From Escherichia coli (GTDB lineage: Bacteria; Pseudomonadota; Gammaproteobacteria; Enterobacterales; Enterobacteriaceae): a stretch of 64,000 bases of DNA. Positions within the stretch are counted from its first letter, which is position 1. Each line of letters begins with the position of its first letter. This document shows, one piece after another, positions 27,908-28,238 of this stretch. The DNA is taken from assembly GCF_044324875.1 (NCBI RefSeq), contig NZ_CP172185.1; one strand, written 5' to 3'. The translations under genes and the position numbers were made by a program. The notes beneath the pieces are model-generated. The model was not told the origin of the DNA and ran no database searches. It was given only the letters and a program-made list of their open reading frames with translations.

Positions 27908-27953
27908 ATGGGAGAGCAGAAACAAAAAAACACCCGTTAGGGTGTTCAATAAT

Positions 27954-28030
27954 TGGTTGCGGGGGCCGGATTTGAACCGACGACCTTCGGGTTATGAGCC
28001 CGACGAGCTACCAGGCTGCTCCACCCCGCG
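27954..28030 (-). tRNA. metZ: initiator tRNA-fMet (CAU anticodon), single copy
   Basis: Reverse complement reads CGCGGGGTGGAGCAGCCTGGTAGCTCGTCGGGCTCATAACCCGAAGGTCGTCGGTTCAAATCCGGCCCCCGCAACCA, the initiator tRNA-fMet sequence including the three consecutive G-C pairs of the anticodon stem and 3' CCA. Confidence 0.95.
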
Positions 28031-28238
28031 TCCGTGGATGCGCACTATACTCCGCTCGCGTTTTCATGCAACCTTTTTTTTACCCCGATCACGGATTCGG
28101 CATGATTTTGAACAAAAACAAATCACTAAAGCCTATTTTTTGTGCAAAATTTGCGTCAGGGAGAGGCTGCTCATTTCATTAAACGCGGCGGTTTGTTATC
28201 TTCGTTGCGCCTTATTTTTTAACCTGAAGAAGAGAACA

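Follow-up and report, generated by a model that had tools for sequence, protein, structure and literature searches.

In Escherichia coli K-12, the genes amiC and mltA are separated by three tandem initiator tRNA genes, metZ-metW-metV. The stretch of E. coli DNA analysed here (contig NZ_CP172185.1 of assembly GCF_044324875.1), which we call the window and which is 64,000 nucleotides long, appeared to carry only one initiator tRNA gene at the same position. This raises the question of whether the single gene is a genuine allele of the K-12 locus or a product of assembly, and, if genuine, how such an allele arose, how common it is in the species and what it would mean for the supply of initiator tRNA.

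The initiator tRNA gene and its signals

ARAGORN detected a single tRNA across the 64-kb window, a 77-nt tRNA-Met(CAT) gene at 27954..28030 on the minus strand, and the Rfam tRNA model RF00005 scored 61.4 bits over the same interval, against a gathering score of 29. The original prediction of exactly one 77-nt initiator tRNA gene between amiC and mltA agrees with both searches and with the identity elements described below. The gene is held in an intergenic region of 359 nt. Its neighbor on the 3' side is amiC, encoding N-acetylmuramoyl-L-alanine amidase (26626..27879, plus strand), and its neighbor on the promoter side is mltA, encoding murein transglycosylase A (28239..29336, plus strand, with the ATG at 28239); transcription of the tRNA gene runs from the mltA side toward amiC. 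The limits of the two coding sequences were taken from the window sequence and from its base-for-base colinearity with the annotated locus of strain ETEC4075 (L010, offset 21999). As first delimited, with a start at 27908, the region under study left out 28 nt at the amiC end of the intergenic region.

Two longer open reading frames were rejected. A frame of 480 amino acids (27894..29336, plus strand) is an artefact in which mltA is extended upstream from its true start (28239) through the tRNA gene and its promoter, because the list of open reading frames takes the first in-frame start. Similarly, the 447-amino-acid amiC frame starting at 26536 is an upstream extension of the coding sequence, the RefSeq start being 26626. 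Elsewhere in the window, the small RNAs GcvB (32353..32558, minus strand, 199 bits) and CsrB (50787..51146, plus strand, 383 bits) were found, as expected for this chromosomal region.

The sequence of the tRNA at 27954..28030 carries the features of an initiator. Positions 1 and 72 form a C1·A72 mismatch; the first pair is flagged as non-standard by Rfam, and the predicted minimum free energy fold is a cloverleaf in which both positions are unpaired. The pair A11:U24 follows the purine11:pyrimidine24 arrangement that is a hallmark of initiators and the reverse of that in elongator tRNAs, and the gene also has the CAU anticodon, A73 and an encoded CCA end. The anticodon stem contains three consecutive G-C pairs (G29-C41, G30-C40 and G31-C39), a feature important in initiator tRNA (PMC3017606). 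Position 46 is a G, which identifies the tRNA-fMet1 type; in K-12, tRNA-fMet1 and tRNA-fMet2 differ only at this position, with A46 in metY (PMC3017606). G46, together with the metZ and metV flanks, rules out that the window gene is metY itself. Moreover, the tRNA is 100% identical to each of the K-12 metZWV copies, and from this identity with K-12 tRNA-fMet1 we predict that it accepts methionine, is a substrate of Fmt for formylation and acts in the ribosomal P site.

The gene had also been described as flanked by A/T-tract hairpins, which was correct for the amiC side, where the terminators are real, and incorrect for the mltA side. The tRNA transcript ends in an intrinsic terminator at 27921..27947 on the minus strand, recognized both by a terminator scan and by folding: a hairpin at 27947..27928 (-11.1 kcal/mol, z -4.0) is followed by U7 at 27927..27921. 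Next to it, at approximately 27881..27906 on the plus strand, lies the intrinsic terminator hairpin of amiC, of a bidirectional type with A-tract and T-tract arms. It folds on the plus strand with -12.3 kcal/mol (z -3.6), followed by a U-run, and also on the minus strand with -7.9 kcal/mol (z -6.8). A match to the Rfam family AaHKsRNA82 at 27879..27956 (plus strand) spans both terminator hairpins; it is below threshold (28.1 bits versus a gathering score of 51.4, E-value 0.22), and we rejected it as terminator-hairpin noise, most likely a chance match. On the mltA side, the A8 tract at 28081..28074 is promoter-proximal and provides no convincing hairpin.

The 5' leader and likely metZ-type promoter occupy 28031..28081 on the minus strand, a stretch that is identical to the sequence upstream of metZ in K-12. 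The sequence of a primer used for the knockout of metZWV in K-12 matches this leader stretch as well (PMC3017606). The candidate promoter consists of a -10 hexamer, TATAGT (28049..28044), located 13 nt upstream of the tRNA, and a -35 hexamer, TTGCAT (28071..28066), separated by a 16-nt spacer. The candidate -10 is followed by GC-rich GCGC, and the A8 tract lies upstream. We assigned these putative metZ hexamers by eye and with the help of the K-12 literature, in which promoter-down mutations of metZ lie in and beside the -10 (PMC3017606). A scan for consensus promoters gave none above its threshold in the tRNA leader, because TTGCAT matches the consensus at only three of six positions. Since the promoter region and the terminator are both intact, the single gene should be expressed as a one-tRNA transcript.

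Array copy number in K-12 and across E. coli

The premise of three tandem copies in K-12, on which the original prediction relied, proved accurate: in MG1655, three tRNA-Met genes are annotated at this position, repeating every 110 nt. These copies, each of 77 nt, show 100% identity to one another in K-12, in BL21 and in others, and the two 33-nt spacers of K-12 are slightly unlike each other. Compared with K-12, the window is missing exactly 220 nt, corresponding to two 110-nt units, and we found no spacer remnant or partial second tRNA copy anywhere in its 64 kb. The leader in the window is identical to that of K-12 metZ at 207 of 208 nt, with one SNP at 28098, and the trailer is that of K-12 metV, with an identical terminator hairpin, a SNP at 27916 and an extra T at 27901. 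The window had been expected to differ from K-12, and indeed these three small intergenic differences come in addition to the loss of 220 nt. The locus is a member of metZWV in which the canonical three-gene array is absent.

We quantified array copy number across the species. BLAST matches to the window were obtained in 5,425 of 5,426 complete E. coli genomes, which identifies the window as E. coli. Copies were counted in the 5,426 genomes with copy-number-specific constructs, using E-value cut-offs strict enough to exclude even the best partial match while still admitting the full-length one. Flank-free array matches indicated at least two copies in 5,194 genomes, at least three in 5,000 and at least four in 67. 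Thus, 4,933 genomes (90.9%) have three copies, 194 (3.6%) have two and 67 (1.2%) have four or more, leaving 232 (4.3%) with one copy or none, a percentage that could be inflated if some single-copy records, for example from hybrid or older assemblies of tightly clonal groups such as O157:H7, are assembly errors. A limited literature search found no comparable species-wide tally of metZWV copy number, and the distribution given here constitutes a useful baseline. The variability of the array, which had been claimed at the outset, is evident in these whole-unit differences over the 5,426 genomes, and the near-isogenic pairs described below fit recombination or slippage.

Copy counts derived from the number of BLAST places were rejected. 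With this measure, the three-copy genomes ECC-1470 and ZH48 looked as if they had two copies, because the W-V spacer often carries a SNP (GCAATACGG) that interrupts the 28-mer search seed; in addition, the joining of pieces into places depended on the strand. Place counts also suggest up to six or seven tandem copies in a few genomes. Among the genomes with at least four copies are FDAARGOS_946, AHB7 and E. coli HS, the latter with four copies in two independent assemblies. A few matches to the tandem array or its island junction were located on plasmids, at two places for the two-unit query and at one each for the three-unit query and the island junction.

The exact layout of the window (leader, one tRNA, terminator) was found in 108 of the 5,426 genomes (2.0%), which share a leader-tRNA-terminator junction of 157 nt at 98.7-100% identity. 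The comparison with K-12 and with other genomes, which had been proposed together with the original prediction, therefore identifies the single copy as a minority allele that recurs in the species in identical configuration. In 104 further genomes, the single tRNA is followed directly by island-type sequence. Two copies with normal flanks were found in 116 genomes; together with the 108 these make 224, in line with the 225 genomes that a search with long flanks matched at full coverage. The 108 genomes include the K-12 derivatives J53, MC1061, OV2 and MG1655p, O104:H4 2011C-3493, O157:H7 Xuzhou21 and pig ETEC. Overall, the single-copy genomes, among them also several STEC and NC101, are scattered over unrelated lineages, and a single tRNA-Met is annotated in three database loci (L003, L008 and L010).

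Over 12 kb around the locus (22000..34000), the best match to the window among the 5,426 genomes has 99.3% identity, so the source strain is not itself part of this collection. The closest flank haplotype over 1.4 kb around the tRNA belongs to M00057, which is 100% identical and carries two copies. The difference between the identity over 1.4 kb and that over 12 kb suggests a mosaic ancestry of the region. Within 22000..34000, the relatives 118UI, M00057 and others have approximately 164 extra nt, and other relatives have an insertion of approximately 5.5 kb with PTS genes.

Assembly collapse, islands and the direction of change

A collapsed assembly had been considered from the beginning. According to this explanation, two or three copies would exist in the strain, and the 110-nt tandem units would have been merged into one during assembly. 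The repeat cores of 77 nt are perfectly identical and thus collapsible by short-read assemblers, and some single-copy records are isolated within tight clones (O157:H7 Xuzhou21 versus PV15-279; MG1655p and J53 versus MG1655). However, the array measures just 297 nt from end to end and its spacers differ, and it is resolved by long reads and by most assemblies of 150-nt reads. A repeat that stays unresolved, moreover, normally interrupts the contig instead of making it shorter, and the junction in the window is clean, with no partial unit. Independent assemblies also agree with each other: both assemblies of HS have the same copy number, and JA0265, whose record is identical in length to that of the single-copy genome NC101, shows the junction between tRNA and island at matching coordinates. 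The single-copy state is shared by related genomes, such as four STEC of one study and the pair GF47 and GF54, and the same STEC study also yielded genomes with extra sequence in the 12-kb region. We therefore consider collapse unlikely for the window.

The 3' end of the last tRNA copy is also a site of island insertion, metV being a recognized integration hotspot (PMC7545054). In 1,354 of the 5,426 genomes (~25%), island-type sequence (ATTTATTAGAAT...) directly follows the last tRNA-fMet in place of the terminator, as in ECC-1470, AHB7 and NC101. In NC101, for instance, an island of approximately 36 kb with T6SS and PTS/sugar-utilization genes lies between the only tRNA-fMet of the array and amiC. 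The units could then have been removed by an integrase, through integration and excision at identical att sites in the tRNA copies, with the window representing a post-excision state. Single-copy arrays are indeed about three times more common among island carriers (104 of 1,354, 7.7%) than among other genomes (108 of 4,072, 2.7%), although this is a naive statistic, uncorrected for ancestry or clonal sampling (odds ratio 3.05, Fisher p = 2e-14). Yet the window has no island, integrase or att-like scar, and its trailer is the normal terminator; the island of NC101 has no integrase gene annotated beside the tRNA, and K-12 derivatives without the island also lose units. An island-linked loss thus appears very improbable. 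Displaced tRNA copies at the far end of the island were rejected for NC101, the one genome verified among the 104. Many of the island carriers come from a single wastewater series (AVS).

Relatives of E. coli were informative about the direction of the change, since they carry two to four tandem copies between amiC and mltA. Two copies are found in Escherichia albertii, in Salmonella enterica subsp. arizonae and diarizonae, and in Dickeya, and three in Citrobacter, Enterobacter, Klebsiella, Yersinia and Edwardsiella; Escherichia whittamii is also multi-copy, and Tatumella has up to four copies beside mltA. Given these multi-copy arrays, the multi-copy state is ancestral and the single copy is a derived state. 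The opposite scenario, in which this lineage kept an ancestral single copy and duplication elsewhere in E. coli produced the arrays of three, has nothing in its favor beyond the fact that the sequence of the product does not show direction, and it is effectively refuted by the outgroups, with arrays at amiC-mltA from E. albertii, E. whittamii, Salmonella and Citrobacter to Yersinia and Dickeya, and by the distribution in the species, in which 91% of genomes, of all backgrounds, have three copies and the flanking haplotypes of single-copy genomes also occur in genomes with two or three copies.

Unit loss, initiator dosage and known systems

Pairs of near-isogenic genomes display the same kind of change. 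J53 lacks 220 nt relative to MG1655, with no mismatches across 2,628 nt of flank, and ETEC4075 lacks 109 nt relative to ETEC4068, with no mismatches across 11,924 nt. The spacers that remain in two-copy strains differ, being of the Z-W type in M00057 and a 32-nt hybrid in ETEC4068, which points to different breakpoints. Such a pattern is expected when perfect direct repeats of 77 nt recombine or slip, deleting units recurrently and adding them on occasion. Because the copies are identical, neither the breakpoint nor the distinction between RecA-dependent crossover and slippage can be read from the product. The spacers between the tRNAs are polymorphic also in other genomes, with a W-V variant (GCAATACGGTGA) and with hybrids (ATCAAAATTTG) in a four-copy strain, and such polymorphic spacers could mark individual recombination events.

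We regard it as probable that the window carries a shortened metZWV locus, which lost two 110-nt units from a three-gene array by recombination or slippage and which is used normally, with approximately half of the K-12 initiator supply. The ancestral array would have had three identical 77-nt tRNA-fMet genes with 33-nt spacers. Recombination or replication slippage between identical copies would have eliminated two of the units, leaving the surviving gene with the array's first promoter and leader (metZ) on its 5' side and the array's last terminator (metV) on its 3' side. This gene would be transcribed, processed and used normally, producing one tRNA per transcript instead of three. With metY elsewhere in the genome, the strain would have two initiator tRNA genes instead of four, and thus about half the initiator tRNA of K-12. 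The presence of metY in the source strain is predicted from its relatives: the single-copy genomes examined have only one other tRNA-fMet match (two places in the record), which is presumably metY. We saw no compensating change in the promoter, the sole upstream difference from K-12, at 28098, being shared with the two-copy M00057.

An effect of copy number on initiator dosage, also part of the original prediction, is documented in K-12 (PMC3017606, PMC8248024, PMC11480407). Levels of tRNA-fMet track gene copy number, and most initiator tRNA comes from metZWV, whose promoter ppGpp down-regulates (PMC3017606). When metZWV is deleted, initiator tRNA falls to approximately 25% of its normal level and growth is approximately 20% slower (PMC8248024). 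The deletion results in cold sensitivity and relaxed initiation fidelity (PMC3017606), enables initiation by mutant or elongator tRNAs (PMC3017606; PMC7949028) and causes growth defects under specific conditions (PMC11480407). Strains with fewer copies are at a disadvantage in rich media and gain in poor media, according to the summary in PMC9981150 of the work of Samhita (2014). In K-12, a low supply of initiator tRNA also makes the choice of both start codon and initiator less stringent. If this K-12 literature is extrapolated to the expression level and phenotype of the one-copy allele, growth and initiation may differ slightly in a strain that has two initiator genes in place of four.

A more far-reaching possibility is that metZWV switches initiator dosage rapidly, under selection that depends on the niche. 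One- and two-copy alleles (~8% of genomes) would then have been repeatedly favored in slow-growth or nutrient-poor lifestyles, and the threefold excess of single-copy alleles among carriers of the T6SS/PTS island at metV would reflect a real ecological or mechanistic link and not clonal sampling. We consider this distinctly unlikely. The locus in the window is a known one, and its allelic state, derived and carried by a minority of genomes, is known as well; this is ordinary biology, with no new kind of element or mechanism. The single-copy allele is a modest dosage variant, and it serves mainly as a strain marker and as a check on annotation.

The closest known system is K-12 metZWV, with which the window shares the position between amiC and mltA, the orientation, the tRNA sequence, the promoter and leader, and the terminator of the last gene. 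It is unlike K-12 in having neither the other two tRNA copies nor the two 33-nt spacers, and in the three positions 27901, 27916 and 28098. Like the window gene, metY is a single, stand-alone initiator tRNA gene, but it belongs to another locus, upstream of nusA-infB and outside the window. In Salmonella, metZ-metW is a homologous tandem array at amiC-mltA whose copy number also changes by recombination and alters initiator supply. Salmonella amplifies this array under selection when formylation is lost (Nilsson et al. 2006, as cited in PMC2859245); the documented change is thus an expansion, selected in formylation-deficient mutants, whereas the window exhibits a contraction to one copy. The public single-copy alleles of J53, MC1061, 2011C-3493, Xuzhou21, ETEC4075 and STK39-3-E have the same junction as the window.
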